From positions 101,086-165,085 of IMG/VR virus record IMGVR_UViG_3300031718_000001: a DNA stretch of 64,000 bases; one strand, 5' to 3'. The position numbers and the translations under genes were made by a program. How positions within the stretch are numbered: the stretch's first letter is position 1; each line of letters starts with the position of its first letter. This stretch comes from a virus. Shown here piece by piece: positions 6,640-50,643 of the stretch. The notes under the pieces were generated by a model that saw only the letters and a list, made by a program, of their open reading frames with translations, had not been told where the DNA came from and did no database searches.

Positions 6640-8613
6640 GTGACCATTCCGAGCTTCACGACCTACCAGCCGCCTGGCACATACGTGCAGGATGTCAGCA
6701 CGGCGATCGTGGTGCCGACGCTTGTCCCGTCGCAGGTGCTGACCCTGGTAGGCCCGGCGCTGGGCTACCGCACCGCCGTCCAGTCGCTGCTGATCTCCGC
6801 CGGCACCCCGGTCGTGCTGACCTACATGGGCGTGTACACCACGGCCCAGCCGGGGCCGCCGCCGGTCTCGGCGCCGGTCGTGACGACGCTCACCGGCACC
6901 GTGCTGACCCCGGGTGTCGATTATGACCTGAGCACCGTGGCCGATCCGTCCGGCAACCCGGGGCTCGCCGTGACCTCGATCACCCGGGTGAACACGAGCA
7001 CGAACGTGTCCGACGGCCAGCAGGTCTCGGTCACCTACAACTACGCGGACGCCACGTACTTCCAGCCGCAGGTGTTCACCGATCCGCAGAGCGTTATCAA
7101 CGCCTACGGCCAGCCGTTCCTGACCACCGTCCCGCCGGGCGCGAACGCCTCGCAGGTCGCCAACCCGCTGTCGGCGGCGGCTCAGGTGGCTTTCGCCAAC
7201 GGGGCCACCACGCTGCTGTGCGTCGCGCTCAACCCGGCCAGCGGCAACCTGGAGGAGCAGTTCGAGGCCGCCTATTCCGCGGTCGCTACCCAGTCGGCGG
7301 CCACCATCGTCGTGCCGGTGTTCACCGATGACCTCAGCGTCAACTCGGGCACGGTCTCCGAGCTGTGCCAGACCCTGGCCCAGACTATGGACTCGGCGAT
7401 GTGGAGCGCCTACAACGACGGCTTCCCGCGCCAGGGGTTCTTCGGCTTCCCGCGGAACTACAGCGAGGCCGACGAGCCCATCCCGACCTTCGCCGGGAAC
7501 CTGGCCAGCCGCCGGACCATCCTGGCCTACCCCGAGATCGTCATGCTGTACAACAACTCGACGGGCCAGGCCTTCCAGGCGTCGGGCTGCTATCTCGCGG
7601 TCGCGCTCGGGGCGATCCTGTCCAGCCTGCCGATCGACACCGGCCTGACCAACCAGACGATCAAGGGATTCTCGGGCCTGACCCAGACCGAGCGCGCCAG
7701 CATGACCAACGCGTTCATGAACACGCTGGCCGCCTCGGGCGTGTCGGTGTGCTTCATCAATTACGCGGGCGCGCTCGTCTGCCGCCAGGGACTGACCACC
7801 GACATGTCGGCCCTGAACTACCAGGAGATCTCGATGGTCCGCCAGTCGGACTCGCTCCTGGTGGCGGTCCAGCAGGGCCTCCAGGGCAGCGGCCTGATCG
7901 GGCAGCCGATCACGAACAACACGATCACGGCCGTCCAGGAGGCGCTGCTCGGGGTGCTGGAGGCCGCAGTCACCAACAGCGTGATCCAGTCCTACACCAA
8001 CGTGTCGGTCACCCAGCAGACGTACCCCGGCGGCAGCCCGACAGTGATCACGGTCACCTTCAACTACCTGCCGGCCCTGCCGCTCAACTACATCACCGTC
8101 CAGATGTCGATTGACCTCTCGACCGGCCTGGTTGCCACCCAGAGCAACCAGAACGCCTCATCGACCGGCTCCAGCTCGTTAACCCAGGAGGTGAGGAGTA
8201 GTGGCGACCACCCAGGCACGGGTCGTAGGTTCCGGCTACACCGTCCTGTCCTACAATTCCCAGCCCATCGCGTACTGCGAGGGCTGGGAAGACTCAGGGC
8301 AGAGGGCTTTCTCGGACGTAGGCCAGCCCTATCAGTTCATTCAGCCCATCGGGGCCGAGCACCCGGTCGAGATCGCCACCTCACGCGTGATCTCCGGCGG
8401 CACGATCATGATCACGATCCGCGAGCTGTGGTCCCAGCCGGTCTGGTGGCAGCTCGCGGGCCTGGCCGGCACGTGGAACATGGTCGATATCTTCAACGCC
8501 CTGGCCGCCAACCCGAATTACGTCACTGCCAGCATGGTGATCAAGCCGCCGGGCACCGAGAACTCGCCCGGGAGCTGGCGCGGCAAGGTCTACCAGAACG
8601 TCACGGTAGTTGA
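6640..8613 (+). CDS. Tail sheath protein (natural end probably ~8182; see findings)
   Basis: N-terminal YQPPGTYV and C-terminal YLPALPLNYITV sheath signatures. Upstream of the tube gene. Confidence 0.8.
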   Translation: MTIPSFTTYQPPGTYVQDVSTAIVVPTLVPSQVLTLVGPALGYRTAVQSLLISAGTPVVLTYMGVYTTAQPGPPPVSAPVVTTLTGTVLTPGVDYDLSTVADPSGNPGLAVTSITRVNTSTNVSDGQQVSVTYNYADATYFQPQVFTDPQSVINAYGQPFLTTVPPGANASQVANPLSAAAQVAFANGATTLLCVALNPASGNLEEQFEAAYSAVATQSAATIVVPVFTDDLSVNSGTVSELCQTLAQTMDSAMWSAYNDGFPRQGFFGFPRNYSEADEPIPTFAGNLASRRTILAYPEIVMLYNNSTGQAFQASGCYLAVALGAILSSLPIDTGLTNQTIKGFSGLTQTERASMTNAFMNTLAASGVSVCFINYAGALVCRQGLTTDMSALNYQEISMVRQSDSLLVAVQQGLQGSGLIGQPITNNTITAVQEALLGVLEAAVTNSVIQSYTNVSVTQQTYPGGSPTVITVTFNYLPALPLNYITVQMSIDLSTGLVATQSNQNASSTGSSSLTQEVRSSGDHPGTGRRFRLHRPVLQFPAHRVLRGLGRLRAEGFLGRRPALSVHSAHRGRAPGRDRHLTRDLRRHDHDHDPRAVVPAGLVAARGPGRHVEHGRYLQRPGRQPELRHCQHGDQAAGHRELARELARQGLPERHGS

Positions 8614-9180: not shown

Positions 9181-9213
9181 CCCGCGGGCTCCGCCCGGAA
9201 GATATGGAACCCC

Positions 9214-10814: not shown

Positions 10815-10877
10815 AAATTCCGTAAAGACGTGCTCACGTCCGTGGGGTAAACGGGACTTACTCACATAGGAGGAGAT

Positions 10878-11048: not shown

Positions 11049-11074
11049 CCCCGGAAGGTCTGGGAGGAAATCTC

Positions 11075-37291: not shown

Positions 37292-37656
37292 TGTACCGGA
37301 TCTCCGATCGGGTCCAGGCCAAGGTCATCGCGGGCATCAAGGCCCTGGGCCTGCCTGCCGAGGATGAGGAGCAGATCGGCTGGGAGATCAATCCCATCCT
37401 GCTCTCACGGCCCGGCGCCATCCCGCAGCTCGGCTTCGTCGTCGGCATCTCGGTGCCCGTGCCCGCCACTGAGGACGACTTCATCCTGCACCTGGAGCCG
37501 CTGACCGACGCGCATGCCGGGCAGGAAGCCGTCACCGAGCTGATCGCCAAGCTGTACGGCAGCGCCTCGTCCGAGGCCCGCGAGCAGCATGTCCGGATCA
37601 CGGTCGCATCCAACGGGGAGAAGCGCACCGAAGGCGGGCTGGTCATCCCCGAGTAA
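37291..37656 (+). CDS. Hypothetical protein
   Basis: TGATG coupling; coding bias. Confidence 0.6.
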   Translation: MYRISDRVQAKVIAGIKALGLPAEDEEQIGWEINPILLSRPGAIPQLGFVVGISVPVPATEDDFILHLEPLTDAHAGQEAVTELIAKLYGSASSEAREQHVRITVASNGEKRTEGGLVIPE

Positions 37657-37686
37657 CCGCCTGGCCGTCCCGGCCCCGGAAGGTAT

Positions 37687-38778
37687 GTGACCGGGACAGT
37701 TTCTTTCGTCGTTGACTGCGCGTCCTTCCAGGGCCGCCCCGACTGGGCTCGCGTCGCCGCGGTGTGCATCGGCGGGGCCGAGAAGGTCACCGAGGGCACC
37801 AGCTACATCAATCCGGAGTGGGCTGCTGCCAAGCCCGCCATGCAGGCCCTGCACGGCTTCACCCCGCTGGCTTACCTGTTCCTGGATGCTGTCGAGCCGG
37901 GGGCAGCCCAGGCCCGGTACTTCGCCCAGGCCGCCGGCGAGCTGACCGGTTTCGCCATCGTCGCCGACTTCGAGCGCGCCCCGAACGGCTCCCCCACGCT
38001 CGCCCAGGCCCAGGACGCCGTGGCCGAGCTGCGGCGCCTCTACCCGGGAACTCCCGTCGGCGGCTACTGCCCGCACTGGTACACGGGCGGCGAGGACCTG
38101 ACCTTCATCGACTGGCTGTGGGCCAGCGACTACGTGGACGGCTCCGGCGACCCGGGCATGCTCTACCCGCAGGTCCCGGCCTCCTGGTGGGCGCCGTACG
38201 GCGGCCGGTCCCCGCTGATGCTCCAGTTCACCTCCTCGGCGACCGTGGCCGGCATCGGCGGCCACGCGGACTGCTCGGCCTACCATGGCGACGCCTCGTC
38301 TTTCGCCGCGCACGTGCTCGCGGCATCGTCAGCTACCCCCGTGCTCAGCGAGGCCGCCGCCGGCCCGGCCGTCCGCACCGCGCAGAACCGGCTGAACGCC
38401 TGGGGCTCGCGGCTCACCGTGGACGGCGACTTCGGCGCGATGACCCTGGCGGCCGTCCGGTCCTTCCAGTCCGTCCGCAAGCTCAAGGTCACCGGGGTGA
38501 TCGAGGGGAGTACCTGGGCGGCCCTGCTGAAGGACGCGCCCTCCTCCGGCACTGCCGGGATACCGCGCACCCTCGCCCAGGGAGCTACCGGCTCGGCCGT
38601 GCGCACGCTCCAGGTCCGGCTGGACACGTGGGGCGCCAGGCTCGCCGTGGACGGCGACTTCGGGCTCAGGACCGAGATCGCCGTCCGGTCCTTCCAGCGG
38701 CAGCACGGGCTCCACCCGGATGGCATCGCCGGGGCGGCCACCTGGATCGCCCTGCTGAGGAAACCCCCGGCCAGGTAG
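37687..38778 (+). CDS. Endolysin: GH25 muramidase plus two peptidoglycan-binding domains
   Basis: VDCASFQG, KVTEG, DFE, QFTS GH25 motifs; two VDGDFG..T..AVRSFQ PG_binding_1 repeats. Confidence 0.9.
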   Translation: MTGTVSFVVDCASFQGRPDWARVAAVCIGGAEKVTEGTSYINPEWAAAKPAMQALHGFTPLAYLFLDAVEPGAAQARYFAQAAGELTGFAIVADFERAPNGSPTLAQAQDAVAELRRLYPGTPVGGYCPHWYTGGEDLTFIDWLWASDYVDGSGDPGMLYPQVPASWWAPYGGRSPLMLQFTSSATVAGIGGHADCSAYHGDASSFAAHVLAASSATPVLSEAAAGPAVRTAQNRLNAWGSRLTVDGDFGAMTLAAVRSFQSVRKLKVTGVIEGSTWAALLKDAPSSGTAGIPRTLAQGATGSAVRTLQVRLDTWGARLAVDGDFGLRTEIAVRSFQRQHGLHPDGIAGAATWIALLRKPPAR

Positions 38779-38824
38779 CTATCCCGGTGCCCCCAGGCAG
38801 GCCCCAGAAGGATCAGGAGGACCC

Positions 38825-39019
38825 ATGACCGTGCAGCCCGAGCGCGTGCAGCGCGAGTGCGATGAGTGCCACGAGGTGGACGACCAGCCGCACCACCAGG
38901 TGGTCGTGCCGGAGGAGGGCGGCCTGGTGATGTACAGCCGTCACTTCCGCTGCTGCGTGCGCGTCGGGTGCCCGGACGGAAGCTGCGTCACGATCCTGAA
39001 CAGGAGTGCAGGTGTCTAA
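38825..39019 (+). CDS. Small Cys/His-rich protein
   Basis: CDEC...HFRCC...CPDGSC; RBS and late motif upstream. Confidence 0.65.
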   Translation: MTVQPERVQRECDECHEVDDQPHHQVVVPEEGGLVMYSRHFRCCVRVGCPDGSCVTILNRSAGV

Positions 39020-39404
39020 CCTCGACCAGACGTTCAGCAACAAGCTGCTCAACGCCAGCGTTGGCGGGGCCTTCACTCCGCCGACCACCCCGATCACGTG
39101 CCGGCTGATGACGGCGAACGGCACGAACACCTCCAACGGCACCGAGCTGGCCACTTCGGGCGGGTACACCTCCGGCACGGGTGCTCCCCAGGTGACCTTC
39201 GCCGCTGCCTCCGGCGGGTCGGTGGCCTCCAACGTGGCCGTCACCGTCACCAACATGCCGGCCACGACCATTGTCGGGGTCGAGCTGTGGGACTCCGAGG
39301 GCACGCCGATCCGGCTGTGGTGGGGGCCGCTGACCGCCAGCAAGACCACCAATGCGGGCGACACGTTCACCATCGCGAGCGGGTCGCTCACCCTGGCGAT
39401 GTGA
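39012..39404 (+). CDS. Small virion protein (tail-fibre-associated family)
   Basis: GTE...GGY...LWD...GPLTASKT...GDTFTI..GSL pattern. Confidence 0.65.
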   Translation: MSNLDQTFSNKLLNASVGGAFTPPTTPITCRLMTANGTNTSNGTELATSGGYTSGTGAPQVTFAAASGGSVASNVAVTVTNMPATTIVGVELWDSEGTPIRLWWGPLTASKTTNAGDTFTIASGSLTLAM

Positions 39405-39405
39405 C

Positions 39406-39669
39406 ATGGCGGAGAGCCCGACGACGCTGACCTACCCGCTGGAGACTTCCGCCGACCAGCTCAACGGCGGGAAGACCTTCAGCACGACCACCAACACCTG
39501 GGTGCCGGACGCGGGAGCCGTCGTCCTGGCGGACCCGGCTGCGGCTACCCGGGATCCGGGCGACCCCTATGAGTGCCAGCTCGCGGACGGCACCAGTGCC
39601 GGGTTCACGGACACGACGTATACCCTGACCGCCGCGCAGACCGCGGCCGGGAGCCTGATGGGGGCCTGA
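39406..39669 (+). CDS. Hypothetical protein
   Basis: Coupled ORF MAESPTT... Confidence 0.55.
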   Translation: MAESPTTLTYPLETSADQLNGGKTFSTTTNTWVPDAGAVVLADPAAATRDPGDPYECQLADGTSAGFTDTTYTLTAAQTAAGSLMGA

Positions 39670-39854
39670 TGGCACAGGTGGCTGCACAGGTGTCCCTGGC
39701 CGCGCAGCCCTTTCTGGCCTGCACGGTACTTGCCCAGCGGATCACCATAACCCCGGGTAACGTATCCCCCGATCAGATGGACACCTACGGCTCGCTCGTC
39801 CCTGAGCCCTACGTTGAGGTGCCCGGAGTCATCGACGGCATTTACAGCACCTGA
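39669..39854 (+). CDS. Hypothetical protein
   Basis: TGATG coupling; MAQVAAQVSLAAQP... Confidence 0.55.
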   Translation: MAQVAAQVSLAAQPFLACTVLAQRITITPGNVSPDQMDTYGSLVPEPYVEVPGVIDGIYST

Positions 39855-39868
39855 ACCGGAGGTCTCCC

Positions 39869-40495
39869 ATGGCCCATGCCCAGTCCCTGCCCCCGACGGA
39901 TACCCAGTCCGGCCTGCCGTTCTTTGAGCGCGTCTCCCACGGCTACTCGATGCACCAGGTGGATGACTACATCCGCCAGGCGCTGGCCCGGCTGCATCAG
40001 CAGGAGCAGGATCTCCTCGGCCATGCCGAGCAGCTCGCGACCGCCGCGGTGCACAGCCCGCAGGCCGAGCAGATGATTGACGAGCTGATGAAGCTGGCAC
40101 TCGATGAGATCCTCGGCCAGAAGGCAGCCGCCATCACCGAGGCCGAGCAGTTCCTGTCGTCCGCCCGCCAGGAGGCGGAGCAGATCATCGCCGCGGCCAG
40201 GGACGAGTCGGAGTCCATGGTCTCGGGCGCCCGCGAGCAGTCCGGTTCGCTGCTGGCCGATGCCCGCAGCAGTGCCCGGAAGATGCTTGACGATGCCGCG
40301 AGCCGGGTGGATGAGGCCGAGCAGCACATCGCCGCGCTGGCCAGGACCCACGAGGAGACGCTCTCCCGCCTGGATGAGATCAGCCGGGTGACTACCCGGC
40401 TGCTCGGCTCGGAGCGCGAGCGCGGTCTGCCCGGGTCGGTGTCCGGCGCTGTCCAGGCGAACGCTCCGGCCCAGCTCCTGGCAGCCCCCGAGTAA
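39869..40495 (+). CDS. DivIVA/Wag31-domain coiled-coil protein
   Basis: FERVSHGYSMHQVDDYI matches DivIVA F-x4-GY-x3-(E/Q)VD; followed by AEQ/AR-rich coiled coil. Confidence 0.7.
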   Translation: MAHAQSLPPTDTQSGLPFFERVSHGYSMHQVDDYIRQALARLHQQEQDLLGHAEQLATAAVHSPQAEQMIDELMKLALDEILGQKAAAITEAEQFLSSARQEAEQIIAAARDESESMVSGAREQSGSLLADARSSARKMLDDAASRVDEAEQHIAALARTHEETLSRLDEISRVTTRLLGSERERGLPGSVSGAVQANAPAQLLAAPE

Positions 40496-40497
40496 AA

Positions 40498-40542
40498 GGG
40501 TGGCGGGCCTCCCCCGTAGCCCACGGTGAAAGCCCGCCACCC
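40498..40542. terminator. Hairpin between convergent DivIVA-like and traB genes
   Basis: GGGTGGCGGGC / GCCCGCCACCC stem. Confidence 0.6.
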
Positions 40543-40586
40543 AGCTCGCGGAAGCCTGCCAAGACTATCCCGGCTGGATCTCCATC

Positions 40587-42554
40587 CTAAGCCGCCTGGT
40601 CATCCTGCTTCGGCCCGTACTTCCACCGGCTGTAGTCCGGGTTGTGCACGATGCCCTGGGTCTCGTCGTCCTTCAGCCACCGCTGGACGGTCTCCCGCGC
40701 GACGGTGATCTTCTCGTCGGCCAGCCACTGGTGGAGCTGGGCGGGGGTCGCGCCCCGGGCACCGCGGCCGGCGAGCAGCTCGCGCATCCGCTTCCGTGCC
40801 GGATGCAGCTTGCTCTCCGGGTCCTCGAAGCCGGCGACGATCGCCTCGAACTGGCTGGTGTCCACGTCGGCTACCGCGGTCGCCGTCCGGCCGCTGCCGC
40901 TGAACATCCGGGCCAGTGACGGCTGCTGGGCGGCGCGCACCCAGCGCTCGGTGTAGTCGCTGCCCAGCGAGTCGGCGGTGAGCTTGTCCAGCCGCGGCCG
41001 GATCGACCCGACATCCAGTGTGGTCTGGTAGACAGGGCAGCCGGCAACGCAGCCTTCGTTCTCGTTCTCGCTGCACTCACCTTCCAGGTGGTCGTGCAGG
41101 AAGAACTTGCTCATCATGGAGGCCTTGCGGCCGACCGCGGCCACGCCGACGCCGGGAGTGCTGGCCATCACCGAGAGCTGCTTCTGGGCCATGTGCGCGT
41201 CCGGGATGACATACCGCAGGTCTCCCTCGGTAGCCGCGCCCAGGGCCAGCCGCAGCTTGCACAGGGACTTGAGGTTGCCGCTGCCGGCGAAGTCCACGGT
41301 GCCCCGCTGGGTCGCCCAGATCGAGGTGACCGCTTCCGACCGGGCGAGCTGGACGCCCTCCTCGGCCATGTGGATGAACTGCCGGTTGGTGACGGCATCC
41401 TCGCCGACATCCTTGCGGGTGCCGCGGTCGCCGCCGAACAGGACCGACATCTCATCGCACAGCAGGATGATCTGGGGCATCGAAGCGCTCGGCGTGATCT
41501 TGGATCCGCCGATGCCGGAGTTCATCCTGGTCTCGATCGACTTCTTGAAGGCCGTCATCATGAGGGCGGCCTCCTCGCGGGTGGTGGCTACCCAGTCGAG
41601 CGCGGGCGCCTCGGCGTTGCCCTCGCACCAGGCCTGGAGCCAGGCCTTGACCGTCCGGCCGCCCTTCATGTCGATGGCCCAGATCACGGTGTCCACGCAG
41701 TAGGAGAGCTGCGCCAGGATCACGTTGATCAGGTTGCTCTTGCCGGCGCCCGTGGTCCCGACGATGTACATGTGCAGCTCGCGCAGCGAGATCTTCAGGA
41801 CCGTGCCGTCCTCCTGGACGCCGATCGCGAAGGGCTCGTTGACCGTGCTGGCGTGCAGTTCCTTCTTCAGCGTCGGCGAGTCGATGAGTACTTCATGCTC
41901 GCGCAGCCGCAGGATGATGTCGCCGGAGTGCTCGCCGATCGAGAACTCCACCGCGCCGGGCTTGAGCCGCAGGATGACCGCGATCTGCCCGGCGCAGCCC
42001 TCCAGGGTGGAGAGGGTGATCTTGCCTGACCGGGGGAGCTGGAGCCGGAGCACCCGGCCGGAGCGCTCGCTGGCCAGGCCCAGGACCTGGACGCCGGAGC
42101 AGCCGACCTCGCGGAACATGTGCTCGAACTTGGTCATCTCCTCCTGGAGGTCCTCCTCCGGCGGAGCGCCCGCGGTGAGTTCCTTCGGGGCCGCGGGCTG
42201 GTCGGGGACCAGCCCGGACAGCGCGGCGTGGGCCGAGAGCGGGGCGCAGATGATCATCCCGATGATCCACGCGGTGACCACCCCGGAGTCCCACAGGCGG
42301 GTCATCTCGGCCCACAGGGTCCACAGGCCGAGGTAGAAGCCGAAAAAGGCAATGAATGACGAGATCGCGCCGCGGCCTGTGGACGCCCACACCGACAGGG
42401 CAATGACGATGCCGAGCATCATCTCCACGAGCGGCATAAGCCACAGCGGCAGGCCCGTGCCGGGGAGCACGGCCACGGCTGCGAGCGCGAGGGAACCCAG
42501 GAGGACGACCGTCTCCACGGCGTGCTCCCAGATCCTGCGCTTCTTGTGGCTCAA
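40587..42554 (-). CDS. traB: FtsK/SpoIIIE-family DNA translocase, actinomycete conjugative TraB type
   Basis: Four N-terminal TM helices, Walker A GTTGAGKS, IDMKGG, Walker B ILLCDE, ATQRG, C-terminal winged helix (RETVQRWL). Neighbours are Spd- and TraA-like. Confidence 0.8.
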   Translation of the reverse strand: MSHKKRRIWEHAVETVVLLGSLALAAVAVLPGTGLPLWLMPLVEMMLGIVIALSVWASTGRGAISSFIAFFGFYLGLWTLWAEMTRLWDSGVVTAWIIGMIICAPLSAHAALSGLVPDQPAAPKELTAGAPPEEDLQEEMTKFEHMFREVGCSGVQVLGLASERSGRVLRLQLPRSGKITLSTLEGCAGQIAVILRLKPGAVEFSIGEHSGDIILRLREHEVLIDSPTLKKELHASTVNEPFAIGVQEDGTVLKISLRELHMYIVGTTGAGKSNLINVILAQLSYCVDTVIWAIDMKGGRTVKAWLQAWCEGNAEAPALDWVATTREEAALMMTAFKKSIETRMNSGIGGSKITPSASMPQIILLCDEMSVLFGGDRGTRKDVGEDAVTNRQFIHMAEEGVQLARSEAVTSIWATQRGTVDFAGSGNLKSLCKLRLALGAATEGDLRYVIPDAHMAQKQLSVMASTPGVGVAAVGRKASMMSKFFLHDHLEGECSENENEGCVAGCPVYQTTLDVGSIRPRLDKLTADSLGSDYTERWVRAAQQPSLARMFSGSGRTATAVADVDTSQFEAIVAGFEDPESKLHPARKRMRELLAGRGARGATPAQLHQWLADEKITVARETVQRWLKDDETQGIVHNPDYSRWKYGPKQDDQAA

Positions 42555-42679
42555 GTTCTCTCCCTGGACTGGTGTTCTTTAACATCAGGTGCTCTACGTA
42601 CAACCAGGAAAATATCAAGTTCATTGCTAAGCAGTCAGCAGTGGTACCCTCCGCTCACCCTCCGAGACCCCGGGAGGCG

Positions 42680-42862
42680 GCTCACACCTGTGATCCGGAT
42701 GTGTGACTGTGATCGGCGCTTAGCAAGGTTCCTTGCTGTGACGCAGGTGTGATCCGGTCACACCGGTACAAATCACACTTGTGACTTACCGCAGGTCAGA
42801 AGGTGTGACTGTGATCCGCGAGGCAGGAAACGCCCGGGAAACGGCACGCCGGGGCTGTGACC
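42680..42862. repeat. Cluster of TGTGA(C/T) repeats, candidate clt or operator locus
   Basis: About 12 TGTGA copies on both strands, including GTGTGACTGTGATC twice (42701, 42803). Confidence 0.7.
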
Positions 42863-42864
42863 GG

Positions 42865-42893
42865 TAGACGAATACAGCTTTTCTTGATAATCT
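42865..42893 (+). promoter_or_regulatory. SigA-like promoter containing the early-gene box
   Basis: TAGACG-17 nt (AATACAGCTTTTCTTGA)-TAATCT. Confidence 0.7.
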
Positions 42894-42928
42894 GAATCAA
42901 CTCCGCACCTACTACCGAGGAGGCCAAG

Positions 42929-44056
42929 ATGACCGCCACGGAATCCGTCAAGGCAAACTGGCGTGCATACGCTGCGGCTATCCCCGTGGTCTTTGTCAAC
43001 ACGACCGCGTTTATCGGCCAGTTTGCTTTCCTCCAGGCCCACGTGCGCTGGATTATCCCGGGCATCGTCCTGATTGCCGTCTCGATCGAGAGCGTCGGCA
43101 TCTACTACGCCTTTCACGCCCACCTGGCGATGCTGGCCAACGACTCCGCGATGCGCCTCAAGCTGGCTGCCTACTCTTTCGCGGCCGTGATCGGCGTCAT
43201 GAACTACAGCCACTATGCGGCGCCGCACTGGCGGCCGACCGCGCTGGCCGTGATCATGCTCATCGCCTCGTCCATCTCGCCCTGGCTGTGGGGCGTGCAC
43301 TCACGCCGTGCCAGCCGCGACAAGCTGATGGCACGCAAGCTGGTCGATGAGCACGCTGTCCGGCTCGGCGCCAATCGGTGGACGTGGCACCCGGCACGCT
43401 CGATCCGCGTGACCCGCTGGTCTGCCTGGCACGGCGTCAACGACCCGGCACGCGCCATCGCCCACTTCGCTGACCGGTACGGCACGGCCGACACGGATCC
43501 CGGCGCGCTGGACCGGGCAGCGCTGCGCGTGCCAGCCGCTGTGCCAGCCAGCGAGCCAGAGGCTCTTCCGCTTGGCGCGGCCGTGGCACACGCCATCGAG
43601 AGCGTGCCAGTCGCTGCGGCGGCCATTTCCCCCGTGGCACAGGCCGTGCTCGGCGCGGGTGGCACGCTGGCGAACGGCCCGGCGGCCGTCGTTCCCGAGC
43701 CAGCCGCACAGGTGCTCTCCGCTGATGCCCACCTGGAGGCCGAGGCCAGCCTGTCCGGAGGCAAGCCCACGGCGGAGACCATCGCGAGCGTCGAGCTGTG
43801 GCTGATGGGCGTCGGGCTCGATGACCTGCCCTCTGTCCGCGCCGTGGCGCGGAAGCTGGGCGACCAGAACCAGCGTCGCCTGGCCAGGAAGCTGCTGGAT
43901 GCCCGCGTGGCAGCCGGTACCTCGTTCGTCTCGGCACCCCCGAGCGGACAGATCAATGCCAGCGGGAGCCGCACCCAGGTCAGTGACCAGGGCAACGGAC
44001 TGATCGCCTCCCCGCTGGCCTACCGCCCAGGAGGTGTAAATGGCGGAGACAACTGA
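42929..44056 (+). CDS. Spread (SpdB/DUF2637-like) membrane protein
   Basis: Four N-terminal TM helices, Pro/Ala linker, C-terminal LPSVRAVARKLG HTH-like segment; divergent from traB. Confidence 0.6.
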   Translation: MTATESVKANWRAYAAAIPVVFVNTTAFIGQFAFLQAHVRWIIPGIVLIAVSIESVGIYYAFHAHLAMLANDSAMRLKLAAYSFAAVIGVMNYSHYAAPHWRPTALAVIMLIASSISPWLWGVHSRRASRDKLMARKLVDEHAVRLGANRWTWHPARSIRVTRWSAWHGVNDPARAIAHFADRYGTADTDPGALDRAALRVPAAVPASEPEALPLGAAVAHAIESVPVAAAAISPVAQAVLGAGGTLANGPAAVVPEPAAQVLSADAHLEAEASLSGGKPTAETIASVELWLMGVGLDDLPSVRAVARKLGDQNQRRLARKLLDARVAAGTSFVSAPPSGQINASGSRTQVSDQGNGLIASPLAYRPGGVNGGDN

Positions 44057-45480
44057 GGAGGCAGAGCTGCCGCCGCAGCCCGCTCATCAGGGAGAATACC
44101 GGCGGTCCCCCGCGTCGCGATGGCGGCGCCGGGGGACCGCCAGTGGCTTGCTGACGGCTGGCGGCAGTCTCATGCTTCACATGCTAGGAGGGCCTATGTC
44201 CCTCCTGATCGGCGGCGGCGTGGTGCTCGCCGGAGGAGGCGGGCTGGCCCTGTGGCACCTGCCGAGGATCCGTCACCACCTCAATGACGGCCGCCGGGAG
44301 AAGAAGACCCGCACCAGGACCCGCACCCGCGGGAGCCGGGGCGGGTCACGCGGTGCCAGGGCGGGCCGGGGCGGCCGGCTGTTCGGGGGAGCTGGCACGC
44401 GCCGGGGTGGCACGGCACGCTCTCCTCTGGGCGGCCGTGCCAGGGGTGGCACGGCACGCCGTGCCACCGGGCCGGGTCGCGGGCGTGCCAGCGGCACAGG
44501 AGCCCGGCGCGCTGGCGCGGCACGCGGGCCGCTGGCACGGCGCGCTGGCACGGGCCGTACCGGCACGAGGTCTGGCACAGCGCTCAGGCGGCGCGGTGGC
44601 GCGGCACGTTCCGGGGCTGGCACGGCACGCCGCCGGTCTGGTGGCACGGGAGCGGGGCGCCGCTTCGGACGTACCGCGCCGGCACGCGCCGGCACGCGGT
44701 TCCGTCCCGGCTCGCGCCGGGGCGGGGCATACGGCCGCCGTGGCACAGCGGGCAGCCGCTGGCGTCGCGGTCCAGGTGGCCGGCACGGCCGGACTCGTCC
44801 CGGCAGCCGGGCTCGTCCGGGCGGCCGGGGTACGCGGGCGTACGGACGCCGGTTCGGCATGTTCGGCCGTCGCCGGTCGATGCCGCCGCCCAGGATGCGC
44901 GCTCGCCGGACCAGGAGCGGCCGGGGTGCCGGCTCAGGCGGCGGTCGCCGTCTGGGCTCGGGCCGAAGGATGGGTCGCCGCCGGTTCCTGCTCTTCGGCA
45001 AGCGCAGGCCGGTACGTGCCAGGGTGCGGCGCCCGGCAGCTCATGGCCGGGGCCGGCACGCGGCTGGCGCGCGGTCGAGAATGGGCCGGTTCCGTGCCGC
45101 GCGCTGGCGCCTCCGCAGGCCTCCGGGCAAGTGGATCCCCCGGTTCCGGCGCACCAGGAGTGGCACCAAGCCGATCCGGATGAAGACCGACTTCCGTCGC
45201 GTCCGCGCGATGGGACGCCGGTACCGGCGTGCCAGGTCGCATCTGGGCCGCGCCAGGCGCAGGTTCCACGCTGCCCGGCGCAGGCGTGCCACCTGGCGTG
45301 TCACGCGCCGGTTCTTCCACCGGCTCACCCCCGCCGGCATGCGAGCCAGGCTGGCACGCCGGTTCGGGCACCGGGTGCGGACACGCCGCATGGGAAGGCG
45401 CATGGGCGGCGCGATACTAGGTTCCTTGCTATTCTGGAAATGGCACAGGAGGAGGCGGGCACCAGGTCGGCACGGCGCTG
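43300..45480. repeat. Dense dispersed (T/C)GGCAC(G/A) repeats on both strands within coding DNA
   Basis: Manual count is roughly 45-50 GGCAC/GTGCC, about 22 of them in 44390-44790. Confidence 0.7.
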
Positions 45481-46004
45481 GCGCAAAGCCAGCCACGCCT
45501 GGCGTGAAGTACCGGATCCGGCCTCCGGGGCCAGACCCGCACGACAGCTCAATGCCTCGTCCGGCAGCGGCAGCGGGTCACCGGGAGCCGTTCCCGGGCC
45601 GGTTCGGTGTACCGACAGGGACCAGCTACCCTGCACGACCATCAGGAGGACACAGTTCCATGGCATCACCAATTCAGGATGCGGCCGAGGCCGTTACCGC
45701 GGGGTTCGCCGGGTTCCACCCGGAGAACGCCGCGCAGCTCCGCGGCATGTTCGACGACATGCCGGGGTTCTTCGAGGAGCTGGCCAGTGGCGTAGCCCGG
45801 CTGGCCGAGAAGTTCGACTCGGAACTCCCGGTTGACCGCAGGGTCGCCGAGGGCGTCCGGGAGATGGTCAGCGCGCTAGCCGGCCTGGGCGACCAGGCCA
45901 ATGAGCTGAACGGCCTGTTCAAGGCTGCCCACGAGACCGAGCTGAAGCGGCTCGACGAGCCGCGTCCGCAGGAGGAACTCTGGGACGTGCGCAATAACGA
46001 GTAG
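44040..46004 (+). CDS. Membrane-anchored Arg/Gly-rich protein with C-terminal TraA-like domain
   Basis: N-terminal TM pair, ~400 aa of extremely basic low-complexity sequence, acidic helical C-terminal domain. Confidence 0.6.
   Translation: MAETTEEAELPPQPAHQGEYRRSPASRWRRRGTASGLLTAGGSLMLHMLGGPMSLLIGGGVVLAGGGGLALWHLPRIRHHLNDGRREKKTRTRTRTRGSRGGSRGARAGRGGRLFGGAGTRRGGTARSPLGGRARGGTARRATGPGRGRASGTGARRAGAARGPLARRAGTGRTGTRSGTALRRRGGAARSGAGTARRRSGGTGAGRRFGRTAPARAGTRFRPGSRRGGAYGRRGTAGSRWRRGPGGRHGRTRPGSRARPGGRGTRAYGRRFGMFGRRRSMPPPRMRARRTRSGRGAGSGGGRRLGSGRRMGRRRFLLFGKRRPVRARVRRPAAHGRGRHAAGARSRMGRFRAARWRLRRPPGKWIPRFRRTRSGTKPIRMKTDFRRVRAMGRRYRRARSHLGRARRRFHAARRRRATWRVTRRFFHRLTPAGMRARLARRFGHRVRTRRMGRRMGGAILGSLLFWKWHRRRRAPGRHGAGAKPATPGVKYRIRPPGPDPHDSSMPRPAAAAGHREPFPGRFGVPTGTSYPARPSGGHSSMASPIQDAAEAVTAGFAGFHPENAAQLRGMFDDMPGFFEELASGVARLAEKFDSELPVDRRVAEGVREMVSALAGLGDQANELNGLFKAAHETELKRLDEPRPQEELWDVRNNE
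45660..46004 (+). CDS. Nested in-frame TraA-like protein (114 aa)
   Basis: Internal RBS AGGAGG plus ATG. The ending F..AHE.EL.R..EPR..EE.WDV resembles Streptomyces plasmid TraA as I recall it. Confidence 0.5.
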   Translation: MASPIQDAAEAVTAGFAGFHPENAAQLRGMFDDMPGFFEELASGVARLAEKFDSELPVDRRVAEGVREMVSALAGLGDQANELNGLFKAAHETELKRLDEPRPQEELWDVRNNE

Positions 46005-46015
46005 GCCCCCGGAAC

Positions 46016-46052
46016 CAGCCCGGCCCCGCCTCCCCAGGGGCCGGGCTGTTTT
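46016..46052 (+). terminator. Intrinsic terminator
   Basis: CAGCCCGGCCCC / GGGGCCGGGCTG stem plus TTTT. Confidence 0.8.
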
Positions 46053-46061
46053 CTGACCAGG

Positions 46062-46090
46062 TTGCCCAATACAGCTTTTCTTGCTAAGAT
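46062..46090 (+). promoter_or_regulatory. SigA-like promoter with early-gene box, leaderless ardC
   Basis: TTGCCC-17 nt (AATACAGCTTTTCTTGC)-TAAGAT; ATG follows after 6 nt. Confidence 0.75.
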
Positions 46091-46096
46091 GAACTC

Positions 46097-47032
46097 ATGA
46101 CAAGGAATCGTAAGGACAGCAGGACCTCCTCGTTCGCCGCCGCCAAGGCAGCCCGGATCAGCGAGCTGACCGACCAGCTTTCCGCCGGCATCCAGGACCT
46201 TTCCACGACTGAGACGTGGCGGGACTACCTGGACTTCCAGGCCAAGTTCCCCCGCTATTCCTTCGGCAACGTGATGCTCATCCTGTGCCAGCTCCCGAGC
46301 GCCAGCATGGTGATGCCGTACGGCAAGCCGGGTAAGCCGGGCACCTGGATGAGCATCGGCCGGCACGCCAGGACCGGCGAGAAGGCCCTGTACATCCGCA
46401 AGCCGTCCATGCGGAAGATCGCCGCCGAGGACTCGGCCGACGGCCAGGAGCACATGGTCCGCAGCTTCGTCTGGGTTCCGGTCTTCGACGTATCGCAGAC
46501 CGACGGCGACCCCATCCCCGAGAACGGCGTGCAGCTCCTCGACGGCGACGACCCAGACGGCATCCTCGCCCTGGTCGTGAAGTTCATCGAGTCGCACGGC
46601 CTGGCCGTCGAGTTCGTCCCCGAGATCCCCGGCAGCAGCGCGAACGGCGACTGCGCCCCCGGAAGGGTCCGGGTCTGCACCTCCGGCCGCACCCCGCTCC
46701 AGCAGGTCAAGACGGCCATCCACGAGGCAGCCCACATGCTGCTGCACCTGGACTCGATCCTGTCCCGCGGGCTCGAGGAGCTCGAAGCCGAGTCGGTCGC
46801 CTATGTGGTCGCCCAGTACCTCGGCCTCCAGACCAGCGAGTACAGCTTCGGCTACGTGCTCGGCTGGGCCGGCGGCGCTGATCGCGCCGGCAAGGCGATC
46901 AGGGAGTCCGGCAACCGGATCCAGGACGCCGCCAAGAAAATCCTCACCGGGCTCGGCGCGATCGAGGCTGCCGGGTACGACGAGCCGGCCGCCGGCTCCG
47001 CGCCCGTCCTCGAAGAGGCTGTGGCCGCATGA
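46097..47032 (+). CDS. ardC: ArdC-like antirestriction protein (ssDNA-binding plus zincin domain)
   Basis: YSFGNVMLI..Q, W...GR....GEKA, VFDVSQTDG, HEAAH, E.EAES.AY. Confidence 0.85.
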   Translation: MTRNRKDSRTSSFAAAKAARISELTDQLSAGIQDLSTTETWRDYLDFQAKFPRYSFGNVMLILCQLPSASMVMPYGKPGKPGTWMSIGRHARTGEKALYIRKPSMRKIAAEDSADGQEHMVRSFVWVPVFDVSQTDGDPIPENGVQLLDGDDPDGILALVVKFIESHGLAVEFVPEIPGSSANGDCAPGRVRVCTSGRTPLQQVKTAIHEAAHMLLHLDSILSRGLEELEAESVAYVVAQYLGLQTSEYSFGYVLGWAGGADRAGKAIRESGNRIQDAAKKILTGLGAIEAAGYDEPAAGSAPVLEEAVAA

Positions 47033-47451
47033 CTCTCCTGCTCGCCGAGCCCCAGGCAGCGGTCCTGGGGCTCGACCCCTCCCAGGTCGATGAGCTGCCC
47101 CTCGGCACCGTCTACCTGCTCCACCTGAACACCCCGGTACGGGCCTACACCAGCGACTACACCTGGAGCCACTACATCGGCCACGCCGACCAGGGGCGCC
47201 TTGTCATCCGCCTCGGCCAGCACGAGAAGGGCCACGGCGCCAGGTTCCTCCGCAAGGCCCTGGCCCAGGGCTGCACCTGGCACCTGGCCCGGGTGTGGAC
47301 CGGCGCCGACTACAAGCGCGAGCGCCAGATCAAGAAGCAGGGCGGCGCCAGCCGGTTCTGCCCTTCGTGCGGCATCATCACCGCGGCCGAGCGCCAGGAG
47401 TTCCGTGACCTGCTCGGCCGCTACATCACACCACCTGCGAGGACCCAGTGA
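47029..47451 (+). CDS. GIY-YIG nuclease-like protein
   Basis: VYLLH...HYIG...RLGQH..G.GAR...ERQIK. Confidence 0.7.
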   Translation: MTLLLAEPQAAVLGLDPSQVDELPLGTVYLLHLNTPVRAYTSDYTWSHYIGHADQGRLVIRLGQHEKGHGARFLRKALAQGCTWHLARVWTGADYKRERQIKKQGGASRFCPSCGIITAAERQEFRDLLGRYITPPARTQ

Positions 47452-47867
47452 ACAAGGACGCATATACGAAAATCGAGCAGGCCAACGGCCTGATCGGCGA
47501 GGTCCACCAGCTCCTCAAGGAGTACCGCGACGGCCTCGTAGCCGACGGCGTGGACGACGGCCGCCTGGCCCAGGCCCAGGAAGCGCTCGACTCGGTGCAC
47601 AGCACCTGGTCGGCCATGCCCTTGACCCGTTCCCTGGTCTGGAAGATCGCAGAGCAGCACGGCAAGCCGCCTGCGATCGAGACCGTTCAGGTCGAGGTGA
47701 CCATCGAGCCCCGGTTCCGCGACGGCTGCTACACCGAGAACACGCTCCTGGAGATCCCGGCAGGCCTGAGCGGCCAGGCCCGGGAGGACGCCATTATCGA
47801 TGCCGCCGCCAGCGAGGTCGTGAACGAGCAGGTGCCATGGGGCGCCCAGGAAGTCGAGGAGTCATGA
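47448..47867 (+). CDS. Hypothetical protein
   Basis: GTGA overlap in the early operon. Confidence 0.6.
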   Translation: MNKDAYTKIEQANGLIGEVHQLLKEYRDGLVADGVDDGRLAQAQEALDSVHSTWSAMPLTRSLVWKIAEQHGKPPAIETVQVEVTIEPRFRDGCYTENTLLEIPAGLSGQAREDAIIDAAASEVVNEQVPWGAQEVEES

Positions 47868-48190
47868 GGGCGGCGTTCGTCCCGGAGACCGGCCAGCGTG
47901 TCCGCGTGCGGCGCTGGGAGGTGCCGTGCCCGGAACTGGAGGGCGGCCCCCAGCGCACGCTGGCCGTCGAGCTGACTGGTACCGTGCAGCGCGTTGACGA
48001 CGGCCGGAGCGCCCGGCCGATGCACGATCCCGTCATCTACCTGGACATCGCCACCATGGATGTCACCTTTGACGCGCTCGGCGACGAGCCGGGCGATAAC
48101 TGGATGATCTGCCTGGGTGATGTCTTCCTGGGCCAGGAGCCGGATCACGGCTACTCCTGGACGTTCCAGACCGAGGTGGAAACGCTGTGA
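47864..48190 (+). CDS. Hypothetical protein
   Basis: ATGA overlap and RBS GAGGAG (MRAAFVP...). Confidence 0.6.
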   Translation: MRAAFVPETGQRVRVRRWEVPCPELEGGPQRTLAVELTGTVQRVDDGRSARPMHDPVIYLDIATMDVTFDALGDEPGDNWMICLGDVFLGQEPDHGYSWTFQTEVETL

Positions 48191-48360
48191 ACGAGCGGGA
48201 CTGGCGCGACCTGGCCAAGGTGCTCACCGAAGGCGAGCGGCGTACCTGGAGTGTCCAGGACGCCACTACGCACCACCTCGGCAGCGTGCTCCGGGCGATG
48301 GCCCAGCGCTGCACCGAGATCGCCGATGAGCGCCAGGCCGAGGCGGGGAACTCGCTATGA
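48187..48360 (+). CDS. Hypothetical protein (57 aa)
   Basis: GTGA and ATGA overlaps on both sides (VNERDWRDLAK...). Confidence 0.55.
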   Translation: MNERDWRDLAKVLTEGERRTWSVQDATTHHLGSVLRAMAQRCTEIADERQAEAGNSL

Positions 48361-48638
48361 GCACGACGACGCTCACGGTCCTCGGGGCGACCGCCAGGCG
48401 CGGCCGGGAGATCGTCGCCCGCATGCGGTACTCGGGCAAGGTAATCACCATCCTGACGCCCGACGGGCATGCGCTCGGCCGGCTGATCCCCGTCGGCTAC
48501 CTCAAGGGATCCCTGGACAACCCCGACAGCTTCGACGTGTGGACGGCCAGGCACCCGGCCGTGCACACGCCCAGCGACACCACGCTGGCGTACGGCCTGC
48601 CCAAGGCCGAGGCCATCCAGTTCCTGCTCGATCTCTAG
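48357..48638 (+). CDS. Hypothetical protein
   Basis: Coupled ORF. Confidence 0.6.
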   Translation: MSTTTLTVLGATARRGREIVARMRYSGKVITILTPDGHALGRLIPVGYLKGSLDNPDSFDVWTARHPAVHTPSDTTLAYGLPKAEAIQFLLDL

Positions 48639-48641
48639 GAC

Positions 48642-48670
48642 TTGTGCAATACAGCTTTTCTTGCTAATGT
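48642..48670 (+). promoter_or_regulatory. SigA-like promoter with early-gene box
   Basis: TTGTGC-17 nt (AATACAGCTTTTCTTGC)-TAATGT. Confidence 0.7.
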
Positions 48671-48707
48671 GGCTTCTATGCAAGGAACCCAGCCGGAAGG
48701 AAGCCCG

Positions 48708-48998
48708 ATGATCAGCCGCGTTATCGTCACCACCGAACCGAACGCCGTTTCCCAGCGCGCCTGGGACGACTTCTGCCACGCCCGCGGCCTGGTCCTCCAG
48801 CCCAGCGGCTACTTCAAGTCCGAGAGCGGTCTGCGTGCCGGCTGCCAGAAGGGCCGGGTCTCGTTCTTCTCCCGGACCACCGGCTACCCGTCGGTCACCA
48901 CCGACCTGCTCGCCCTCTACGCGGGCAAGTTCATTGCCGAGTTCGGCGGCCGGATCACCCGCACCGACAACATGCCAGTCAGCCTGGTCGGTGCCTGA
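48708..48998 (+). CDS. Hypothetical protein
   Basis: RBS GGAAGG; an alternative leaderless start is at 48678. Confidence 0.55.
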   Translation: MISRVIVTTEPNAVSQRAWDDFCHARGLVLQPSGYFKSESGLRAGCQKGRVSFFSRTTGYPSVTTDLLALYAGKFIAEFGGRITRTDNMPVSLVGA

Positions 48999-49483
48999 TG
49001 CCGGAAATGGTGGGCTGGGACACCAGCGACTACGAGCCCGAGGATCTCACGGTCGAGGCCGTCGTCGATATGGTCAAGGGCTGCGGCGACTATGAGGACC
49101 AGGTGGCCGTCACCGACCACGAGGGCAACGCGCTCAGGGTCCTGGGAGTCCGCAGCCACGACTACCGCGTGGAGATCGTCACCGACGTTCCCGGCCGTAC
49201 GCCCTACGTCCAGGACGACAGCAAGCCGGATGACCGGCCTGCTCCGTCCGGTGAGGGCAACGACTCCCGGCTGCTGCGCTGGGTCCGCGAGAATGTGCCC
49301 GACCGGCGCATCCGCCGCAGCGGCATCGATCCAGTCACCCTGACCGGCGGCGAGATCTTCGACCTGCTCTTCGAGGTCGCCGAGAGCTTCTACGGCCGGG
49401 GCGGCGCCGACTACCAGGCGGCCGACGAGCGCGATCCGATGCGCCGCGTGAGCGCCATCCTGCGGGCCAAGGGCCTGTTATGA
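48998..49483 (+). CDS. Hypothetical protein
   Basis: TGATG coupling. Confidence 0.6.
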   Translation: MPEMVGWDTSDYEPEDLTVEAVVDMVKGCGDYEDQVAVTDHEGNALRVLGVRSHDYRVEIVTDVPGRTPYVQDDSKPDDRPAPSGEGNDSRLLRWVRENVPDRRIRRSGIDPVTLTGGEIFDLLFEVAESFYGRGGADYQAADERDPMRRVSAILRAKGLL

Positions 49484-49830
49484 ACGACGACTACGACGCC
49501 AGCCGTCTGCCCAGGCGCGGGCAGGCGGCTGTTGCCGCGTTGCGGGACGAGATCGAGCGGCTGAATAAGGAGGTCGAGCGCCTCCGCGGGCGCCTGGAAG
49601 CTAGCGCGGCCGGCAGCGATACCTTTGCCGAGCCCTACGACGACACTCCGCAACCGCTCGGCCGGGGGACGATGGTCCGGTTCAACGGGGCCGACACCAC
49701 GGGCGACACCTACGACGTGCAGATGCGCGACGGCGACCTGTACGTCCTGGTGAACGGGATGCAGGGTGACACCGCGATCGTTCCGCAGTCCAACAACACC
49801 ATCCGTATCCGCAAGATCTCCCGGCGCTGA
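49480..49830 (+). CDS. Hypothetical coiled-coil protein
   Basis: ATGA overlap. Confidence 0.6.
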   Translation: MNDDYDASRLPRRGQAAVAALRDEIERLNKEVERLRGRLEASAAGSDTFAEPYDDTPQPLGRGTMVRFNGADTTGDTYDVQMRDGDLYVLVNGMQGDTAIVPQSNNTIRIRKISRR

Positions 49831-49896
49831 GTTGCGCCATTACAGGTTTTCTTGCTAAGCTGTAGCTACAACATCAACCCGATGAAGGGACAGAAA

Positions 49897-50643
49897 ATGA
49901 CCGAGACGACCGAGCGCGCTGCGGGCACTGCCGAACTGGCGCAGGTAGCCCCCGGTGTCCTCGCCCGCGTGCGGGACGCAAAGCCCTGGACGATCGCCGA
50001 GCTGGCCGACCTGATGGCCGCCCCCGCTCGCGAGCTGCCAGAGGACGCGCCGTTCCCCGCTCCCGCGGAGCCCGTCACGTTCACCGACAAGCTACGCAAG
50101 GCGCTCCGCAGCCTGCCTGCTGTCTTCGGCCAGGTCGCTCCCCTGAAGAACCGAGCCCTGGACGAGACCGAGCTGGTGCGCCTGACCGAGGAGATCAACG
50201 CGATCGATGAGCTGTCTGGTCAGCTCGGCGACCGCAGGAAGTCCATCCAGGAGTACCTGCGGACGCACATGGACTTCGCGGCCGAGGCCCAGGGCCTGAC
50301 CCCCCTGTGCGACCGCGTGGCCGAGGGCGTGGCCGAGGGCCACTACCTCATCGCCTCACCGGGCGTGCCGTTCGAGGTGCCGGTCGAGGGTTACACCGAC
50401 TCCTGGCAGCAGCGTTACGTCAAGGGCAAGGTCTCGCAGAGCCTGGCCACCCTGAACGAGCTGCTGGACGCCGGCACGATCACCCAGGCCGAGTTCAACG
50501 CCTGCACCGCCACCGTCCGCATCCTGGACGAGGACAAGATCAAGCTCCTCATCAAGCGGACTCCCCGCCGCGGCCTGGCCATCCTGGCCGCGATCACCCA
50601 CCGCAGCGCACCCACCGCGTCGCTGTACGCCCCGAAGAAGTAA
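49897..50643 (+). CDS. Hypothetical protein
   Basis: RBS AAGGGA before MTETT; promoter TTGCGC-18-TAAGCT with box upstream. Confidence 0.65.
   Translation: MTETTERAAGTAELAQVAPGVLARVRDAKPWTIAELADLMAAPARELPEDAPFPAPAEPVTFTDKLRKALRSLPAVFGQVAPLKNRALDETELVRLTEEINAIDELSGQLGDRRKSIQEYLRTHMDFAAEAQGLTPLCDRVAEGVAEGHYLIASPGVPFEVPVEGYTDSWQQRYVKGKVSQSLATLNELLDAGTITQAEFNACTATVRILDEDKIKLLIKRTPRRGLAILAAITHRSAPTASLYAPKK

Follow-up and report, generated by a model that had tools for sequence, protein, structure and literature searches.

The window, i.e. the whole stretch of 64,000 nucleotides that was analysed (positions 101,086 to 165,085 of IMG/VR record IMGVR_UViG_3300031718_000001), is part of the complete 165-kb genome of a myovirus that is a distant relative of the cluster C mycobacteriophages. 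As an earlier note on this DNA had described, four open reading frames lie between the endolysin block and the early/replication genes (Table 1). The traB, spd and TraA-position trio was found at the identical location in eight related phages, the window phage being the ninth; in the other eight, TraB identity was 42-55% and the reading frames were open. This clade consists of apparently virulent myoviruses of ~160 kb. Judged from the nearest cellular homologues, their hosts are probably filamentous actinomycetes (Streptosporangiaceae).

Table 1. Features of the window, with positions counted from its first nucleotide.
Feature	Position	Strand	Evidence or remarks
Contractile tail sheath	6640..8613	+	Match to PHROG tail sheath at E 1e-46; shares 25-30% identity with cluster C, Myrna, E3 and Skog
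GH25 endolysin with peptidoglycan-binding domains	37687..38778	+	Flanking context of the block
DivIVA-like coiled-coil protein, convergent on traB	39869..40495	+	Pfam DivIVA, E 6e-9
TraB-type FtsK/SpoIIIE dsDNA translocase, 655 aa	40587..42554	-	AlphaFold model, fold search, tree, motifs
Array of TGTGA(C/T) repeats (12, in either orientation), candidate clt at which TraB would load	42682..42862	.	traB-spd intergenic; densest genome bin
Phage promoter box upstream of spd	42872..42893	+	Putative extended -10 type; 1 of 20 genome copies; equivalent position in five relatives
SpdB/SpdB2-like (DUF2637) membrane protein, 375 aa, low-complexity linker, C-terminal helix-turn-helix-like end	42929..44056	+	Profiles, homologues
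TGGCAC array within the spd and traA genes; 30 copies spread over both strands and all frames	43308..45446	.	TGGCAC or TGGCGC in relatives
654-aa TraA-position protein with two hydrophobic segments in its N-terminal part, an Arg/Gly-rich linker and a conserved C-terminal domain	44040..46004	+	Layout conserved
Internal promoter-like box of the spd-box family, inside traA, 207-249 nt before internal start	45422..45435	+	6/6 phages examined
TraA C-terminal domain (TraA-C), 114 aa helical hairpin, own AGGAGG and ATG	45660..46004	+	Model pLDDT 90
Phage promoter box upstream of ardC	46069..46090	+	Box family as at spd
ArdC-like anti-restriction protein, 311 aa	46097..47032	+	Pfam ArdcN, E 0.038 (weak, below cut-off); PHROG anti-restriction, E 3e-8

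The translocase was modelled using AlphaFold (pLDDT 90), giving four N-terminal hydrophobic helices (residues 3-112), then an FtsK motor and, at the C terminus, a winged helix, the architecture that had been proposed from the sequence. Walker A (266-273) and Walker B (364-368) are both intact, and the winged helix (helix-helix-helix-hairpin, 585-646) contains the helix 'ARETVQRWL'. A fold search with the model ranked FtsK first, followed by TcpA and then EccC. The best NCBIfam match was plasmid_TraB (E 5.5e-8, 31.8 bits), far below the NF041214 plasmid_TraB equivalog cut-off of 800, as is pZL12.71c (20.2 bits) of the plasmid-phage pZL12. In a quick tree, in which long branches are flagged, the nine phage TraB proteins formed one clade (SH-aLRT 100) within the translocases that are coupled to TraA in plasmids and other elements, where they nested with those of pSQ10, pTH1, pZL12 and Hiyaa (branches 84-100). 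The chromosomal FtsKs fell outside, and the pSG5 and pIJ101 TraB proteins lay outside the subtree of the phage TraB. Family match, fold ranking and tree support the earlier assignment of the ATPase to the plasmid Tra type as opposed to chromosomal FtsK or EccC. SffA, EccC and HerA were rejected following their lower ranking in fold search and tree; type VII EccC has tandem ATPase domains, whereas TraB has a single motor and a winged helix.

The window Spd itself had no direct Pfam match, and direct BLAST against pZL12.73c and against isolated phages gave no match; profiles were therefore needed. DUF2637 was matched by two Spd homologues (best E 1.4e-5), the profile match of the window Spd to a plasmid/phage Spd set reached 98.4%, and in Atlas the best match was the SpdB cluster (0.91), with plasmid proteins matched too. 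By profile and homologues, the protein classifies as SpdB/SpdB2, having a four-helix membrane domain homologous to SpdB_N/DUF2637 and lying beside tra; it adjoins TraB in all nine phages. The promoter box in front of spd is present in 20 copies across the genome, every one intergenic. This agrees with the earlier claims that the spd promoter (placed at 42865) shares its spacer box with other phage promoters and that the block is wired into phage transcription. The box may mark 'early' promoters; a sigma-70 scan found zero promoters.

Both short-repeat arrays reported in the earlier note exceed chance, but their placement between traA and ardC was wrong (92 bp lie there): one is intergenic between traB and spd, the other is within the spd and traA frames. 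For TGTGA, the 12 copies compare with a mean of 1.2 and a maximum of 6 in 2000 simulations. For TGGCAC, the 30 copies compare with a mean of 2.0 and a maximum of 10, and synonymous-codon shuffles are exceeded as well. The TGTGA(C/T) array is also present in other clade members, and its co-occurrence with an RE-type TraB recognition helix was seen in 4/4 independent pairs (p 0.125, the threshold having been picked after the data were seen). Array and helix are found together in the clade, at L015 (array directly behind traB), at L027 and in Hiyaa, and both are absent in sister lineages; L014 has the RE-type helix but only 3 sites. TGGCAC was disfavoured as clt because the motif alternates between TGGCAC and TGGCGC with no change in the helix, and because L015, L027 and Hiyaa show no enrichment of it. 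KOPS-like strand polarity of the repeat motifs was not seen genome-wide. A second TGGCAC cluster, at 66-70 kb of the genome, lies over Gly-Thr-rich ORFs and may be protein-driven.

The TraA-position frame is open, with equal layout, in five relatives and also in plasmid pSQ10 and in Hiyaa. Its C-terminal domain, TraA-C, which has a ribosome-binding-type motif and start codon of its own, is probably produced separately as well. In plasmids, in phages and on host chromosomes, TraA-C is found coupled with TraB. In 5/5 genomes examined, a TraA-C paralogue also forms the end of giant multi-enzyme polyproteins, which are encoded near the terminase and carry ADP-ribosyltransferase, NUDIX and ParB-like domains. 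A fold search of TraA-C returned generic helical hairpins only (best Z 8.2), and the WXG100-like reading, for which the WXG motif is absent, was dropped on this account. Complex prediction for TraB(128-655) and TraA-C scored 0.00, giving no verdict either way.

The DivIVA-like gene, missing from the module as first listed, adjoins traB in 8/8 phages with flank sequence, and its product is a possible localisation partner of the module. ArdC had been counted as part of the module. The ArdC-like protein has a visible HEAAH motif, with its ArdcN match remaining below cut-off; its gene has its own promoter box, is present in only 4/9 phages and is a variable neighbour, not a core component.

No tyrosine integrase, serine recombinase, ParA or GntR was found in the whole 165-kb genome. 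Integrase, recombinase and ParA were likewise not found in four complete genomes (G000, G004, G005 and G006), with pZL12 positive for integrase and ParA. No clear XRE-type repressor was detected, and ParB_N matched part of a giant polyprotein and gave a weak match to a late-window ORF, neither of them in a par operon. Searches of the whole genome and of the two flanks bear out that the module has no integrase, att duplication, plasmid Rep or GntR-type TraR; an AICE identity was rejected on these features. The phage-plasmid branch of the first reading found no support: with four complete genomes devoid of integrase and ParA, a pZL12-like plasmid state is unsupported, and the partition/maintenance genes of plasmid-phages of the pZL12/P1 type are not seen. 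Extrachromosomal prophages can use unusual replicons, and missing known lysogeny genes are no proof of virulence. The temperate clusters listed in PMC9262239 do not include cluster C and AA.

The closest described system is the conjugative plasmid-phage pZL12/ZL12 (GQ919031; Zhong et al. 2010, as cited in PMC3583192 and PMC4487206), for which details were taken from the GenBank annotation and these two citing papers. Like the window phage, it combines virion genes with a three-gene block (membrane protein.73c, TraA-position.72c, FtsK-like.71c); according to PMC3583192, its transfer requires the main tra gene along with two neighbouring genes. pZL12.71c shares 21% identity with the window TraB (E 9e-17) and pZL12.72c shares the C-terminal domain (E 6e-5), whereas pZL12.73c and the window Spd have no direct pairwise match. 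pZL12 is 90 kb, with ParA, integrase, a GntR gene and co-directional block genes; the window phage is a 165-kb myovirus that has none of these three genes, a divergent traB and spd on a phage promoter. Spd-assisted spreading of phage was moreover already proposed by Thoma 2015 (PMC4447253), so the earlier remark, made without access to the literature, that no described case was known no longer stands. In pSVH1, Spd proteins are required for intramycelial spreading with a minor effect on primary transfer, TraB acts in both, and TraB alone can drive primary transfer (PMC4447253).

Further comparison was made with the Streptomyces plasmids pSVH1, pSG5, pIJ101 and pWTY27 (TraB/SpdB2/clt) and with the TraA-TraB blocks of pSQ10, pTH1 and pFQ12. 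Shared features are a membrane-anchored FtsK motor with winged helix, an SpdB-family membrane protein and clustered short repeats beside tra. Unlike in the plasmid systems, the TraB sequence is far from canonical, and no TraR, Rep or small Spd79/SpdB3-like genes were recognised. Among the isolated 81-83 kb Streptomyces phages Hiyaa, Spocter, Keanu and Galactica, on whose module function no paper was found, Hiyaa has the complete trio, made up of gp98, a hidden frame of 688 codons that ends in gp101, and gp102. Hiyaa resembles the clade in its RE-type helix, its GTGAC/GTGAT array and its lack of integrase, recombinase and ParA, but has an unrelated virion module (no sheath match), the ancestral gene order and no TraA-C fusion to polyproteins. 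Sheath homology links the clade to the cluster C-like myoviruses (Ceeclamvirinae, Myrna, Settecandela, E3, Skog; genomes 142-165 kb). Five tail-sheath relatives that infect single-celled Mycobacterium, Rhodococcus or Gordonia have none of TraB, Spd, TraA-C and DivIVA, a comparison limited to these five distant phages (~29% sheath identity). Polyvalent proteins of phages and conjugative elements are likewise giant multi-enzyme ORFs near the terminase; the TraA-C-type end seen here is absent from the PMC5512222 passages on them that were consulted.

Since these lytic-type phages all carry a plasmid DNA pump and its helpers, they may spread along the filament as naked DNA. The reading we favour, at a probability of roughly 0.55, is that the pump would move phage DNA over cross-walls inside the infected mycelium. 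A plasmid-derived Spd-TraA-TraB transfer unit would have been fixed in the clade ancestor. Following infection, spd and traA would be expressed from the phage's own box, presumably early, and TraB would insert in the membrane and use its winged helix to load on the neighbouring TGTGA(C/T) array. TraB and an SpdB-like channel would then pump intact double-stranded phage genomes into neighbouring compartments and, as pSVH1 genetics suggests, possibly into pre-spores or fused hyphae. In this way a single adsorption event would infect more of the mycelium ahead of lysis. For TraB, a 165-kb genome that is linear and replicating may be more difficult to handle than a small circle. A bolder version seems improbable: a strictly lytic phage with a second, virion-free route through cross-walls and hyphal contacts, in which TraA-C on counter-defence polyproteins serves as an address tag sending enzymes with the DNA through the TraB/Spd channel.

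First among the alternatives, though unlikely, is a pZL12-like plasmid-phage or stable carrier, whose circle persists and conjugates between separate mycelia without virions. The homologous pZL12 genes and their role in transfer, the sufficiency of TraB for primary transfer, the circular assembly of the genome and a 161-kb related contig binned into an Actinomycetia MAG are in its favour. Circular assemblies also arise from terminally redundant packaging, however, and unregulated TraB is toxic in plasmids; a species-genome scan returned zero members of the clade, and the maintenance and repressor genes discussed above are not found. Rather unlikely, too, is a repurposing inside the infected cell, whereby the module either serves, with the DivIVA-like protein, to anchor or move phage DNA under replication at the hyphal tip or the membrane, or interferes with the host TraA-TraB pair or competing plasmids. 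Orphan traA-C and traB pairs in housekeeping neighbourhoods of likely hosts, the occurrence in Streptomyces BE and Bacillus phages of solitary FtsK-like genes with neither Spd nor TraA, the inversion of traB relative to the plasmid order and the spread of TraA-C to several other phage genes all fit such a role, which nevertheless leaves the SpdB-like protein and clt-like array of every member unexplained, the orphan chromosomal copies being without both. A chimeric assembly, recent plasmid insertion or decaying relic, to which the very high GC (0.77) and low complexity of traA and the variable ArdC might point, is very improbable and was considered refuted: the coverage and synteny checks proposed earlier gave even depth (~33-41, source run) over both junctions and a conserved site with open frames in eight other phages, an 85.9-kb contig from a separate study is collinear with window positions 36000-50000, traB GC3 (0.94) is the same as that of dnaE, and no att-like duplication was found at the block (longest exact repeat common to both flanks, 12 nt).

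A kit of this type in a phage is not unprecedented, as both pZL12 and Hiyaa encode homologues of the translocase and of the TraA-position protein next to a gene of Spd type. Distinct here are the lack of integrase and ParA in four complete genomes, the phage box on spd, the array tracking helix type, and TraA-C ending the polyproteins. The findings bear on how phages spread within septate mycelium. Where no dormant state is visible in a phage, a transfer kit suggests spread from cell to cell in the course of lytic infection as opposed to plasmid-style persistence, and a candidate loading site can be named. The fusion of TraA-C to polyvalent proteins offers a first handle on the role of this uncharacterised domain. 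Because Hiyaa, a phage cultured on Streptomyces lividans, has the trio (its middle gene being mis-annotated), the 2015 proposal of Spd-assisted phage spreading is directly testable.

The four open reading frames of the earlier note were recovered at their assigned positions (see table). Modelling of the ATPase (pLDDT 90) placed an FtsK-type motor between four helices at the N-terminus and a winged helix at the C-terminus; Walker A and Walker B are intact. Structure searches returned, from best to lower, FtsK motors (E 3e-16), TcpA and EccC. The top NCBIfam match was plasmid_TraB, with a score far under the cut-off, and the same held for the protein of pZL12. In a motor-domain tree, built from a quick search and containing several long branches, the ATPase grouped with plasmid and element translocases and chromosomal FtsKs fell outside, in agreement with the TraB assignment proposed earlier. 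The nine phage proteins formed one clade (100), nested with translocases of other viral contigs, Streptosporangiaceae chromosomes, pSQ10, pTH1, pZL12 and Hiyaa. Judged by sequence and model, the ATPase is predicted to work like TraB and is assigned to the TraA-coupled branch, outside the narrow NF041214 family.

An orphan pair, made up of a 114-aa TraA-C gene and a TraB homologue, sits amid housekeeping genes in chromosomes of Streptosporangiaceae and of related soil MAGs, syntenic in some lineages and with short branches; no Spd, array or evident integrase was found nearby. This pair is possibly a domesticated host DNA translocase. A lone FtsK-like gene was seen in Streptomyces BE-type and Bacillus phages of 150-165 kb, among them Samisti12, which gave no Spd or TraA-C match. 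Isolated phages with FtsK-like matches have almost exclusively filamentous or spore-forming hosts.

The 375-aa spd product is SpdB/DUF2637-like according to homologue matches, profile comparison (98.4%) and language-model neighbours. The Arg-rich TraA-position frame is open, with the same layout in relatives, pSQ10 and Hiyaa. A separate ribosome site and start serve its last 114 residues (TraA-C), and in 6/6 phages examined an internal promoter-box copy lies ahead of them. Of the 20 intergenic copies of this box in the genome, one precedes spd, supporting the suggestion that spd is wired into phage transcription. TraA-C lies directly upstream of TraB on plasmids of Frankia, Thermobifida, Nocardiopsis, Actinomadura and Streptomyces and at most chromosomal loci; relative to this order, traB is inverted in the phage clade. 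The ancestral TraA-TraB order was also seen in several unrelated viral lineages (L011, L015, L019-L029), with an integrase or recombinase in genomes G011-G014 and none in G009 and G010.

Features of the window and of compared loci
Feature	Position	Strand	Remarks
Tail sheath ORF region	6640-8731		~130 codons longer than in relatives; overlaps next ORF (8201-8731) in another frame
115-aa ORF	8833-9180		Lsr2-like by eye
traB	40587-42554	-	
TGTGA array	between traB and spd		12 copies
spd	42929-44056	+	
TraA-position gene	44040-46004	+	
TGGCAC array	inside spd and traA	both	30 copies, all frames
ArdC-like gene	46097-47032	+	
140-aa ORF	47029-47451		YIG-like motif, GIY-YIG nuclease likeness by eye; kept in several relatives; no Pfam or PHROG match
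Extra 322-326 aa gene of two relatives	L003:13396-14364; L009:13122-14102		between DivIVA-like and head genes; faint helix-turn-helix (including GntR) matches; none in window
Hiyaa TraA-layout frame	L099:3331-5474	+	688 codons, open, ending in gp101; annotated gp100 on opposite strand
Samisti12 FtsK-like gene	L100:4371-6185		
Chromosomal TraA-C/TraB pair	L007, L044-L083, around 9200-11900		
Further TraA-C-type sites, whole genome	6.7-15.6 kb (L129:2662-11596), 26.9-27.7 kb, 41.2-42.2 kb (L129-L131)		

Both repeat arrays of the earlier note exist, and its placement of them after the TraA-like gene had to be corrected. An RE-type third helix occurs in the winged helix of every clade member with a complete traB, and all of these except L014 carry at least seven [TA]GTGA[CT] sites within 400 bp. 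Beyond the clade, L015, L027 and Hiyaa have this helix together with a site cluster (directly behind traB in L015); lineages with other helix types have at most four sites. Helix type and array agreed in 4/4 independent pairs (p 0.125; threshold chosen post hoc), which is suggestive, not proof, of the TGTGA array being a candidate TraB loading site matched to the RE-type helix. These sites resemble TGACACC, the repeat in the clt of pWTY27 (PMC3583192).

The gene arrangement recurs in eight other phages: a lysin, a small head gene and a DivIVA-like gene are followed by the convergent ATPase, the divergent Spd and the TraA-position gene, after which come early genes and primase. More than 110 full-length ATPase relatives were found, several on contigs of 136-162 kb. 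The ArdC-like gene, previously counted in the module, is present in just 4 of the 9 phages and has its own promoter box.

The stretch forms the final 64 kb of a viral contig of 165,085 bp, which is rated complete and has a terminal repeat of 127 nt; the runs containing the stretch are soil metagenomes. Its tail sheath shares 25-30% identity with those of cluster C mycobacteriophages, Myrna, Settecandela, Rhodococcus E3 and Gordonia Skog; the over-long sheath ORF may reflect a frameshift or assembly slip. TraA-C-type domains recur at several further sites, also as free genes, and one ORF has two copies (L125-L131). Two copies end giant terminase-adjacent ORFs with ADP-ribosyltransferase, NUDIX and ParB-like domains. 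The same terminal fusion, 2-20 residues before the stop, occurs in four related phages (G004, G005, G006, G008); the final RP-E-W tail is absent from the fused copies. Polyvalent proteins of this kind are believed to reach the host together with the DNA (PMC5512222), and TraA-C on these polyproteins could hypothetically be a tag.

The genes are intact, conserved and co-retained; phage promoter boxes and a significant array are present, and no known maintenance genes were found. The trio would be expressed during infection, TraB would load at the array, and double-stranded genomes would pass through cross-walls with the SpdB-like protein, by analogy with pSVH1, where spreading within the mycelium requires Spd proteins (PMC4447253); the probability of this reading is about 0.55. 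TraB, TraA-C, Spd and DivIVA-like genes are all missing from five relatives on single-celled hosts. The host is a tentative assignment from the nearest cellular homologues, in Streptosporangiaceae and Actinomycetota MAGs.

A plasmid state with mating, as in pZL12, is rather unlikely. The pZL12 genes.72c and.71c, homologues of the TraA-position protein and ATPase, are its traA-C locus, as reportedly described in Zhong 2010. Transfer of pZL12 requires the main tra gene and two neighbours (PMC3583192). The present genome, G004, G005 and G006 gave no match for a tyrosine integrase, serine recombinase or ParA, and pZL12 scored for integrase and ParA in the same scans; the present genome also has no GntR and no clear XRE-type repressor. 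Clusters C and AA are not among the temperate clusters listed in PMC9262239. An intracellular or interference role of the module is likewise improbable. Artefact is very improbable: the block is not chimeric, because read depth is even across both junctions in the source run and an 85.9-kb contig from a separate study is collinear over 36000-50000.

The earlier note knew of no described case; the combination is already known, because pZL12 is a described plasmid-phage with homologous genes and actinophage SpdB2 homologues have been suggested to help phage DNA spread (PMC4447253). New are the helix-array association, the DivIVA-like neighbour, the polyprotein fusions and the fixation of a rewired module in an apparently virulent myovirus clade, in which TraB may carry genomes across septa.
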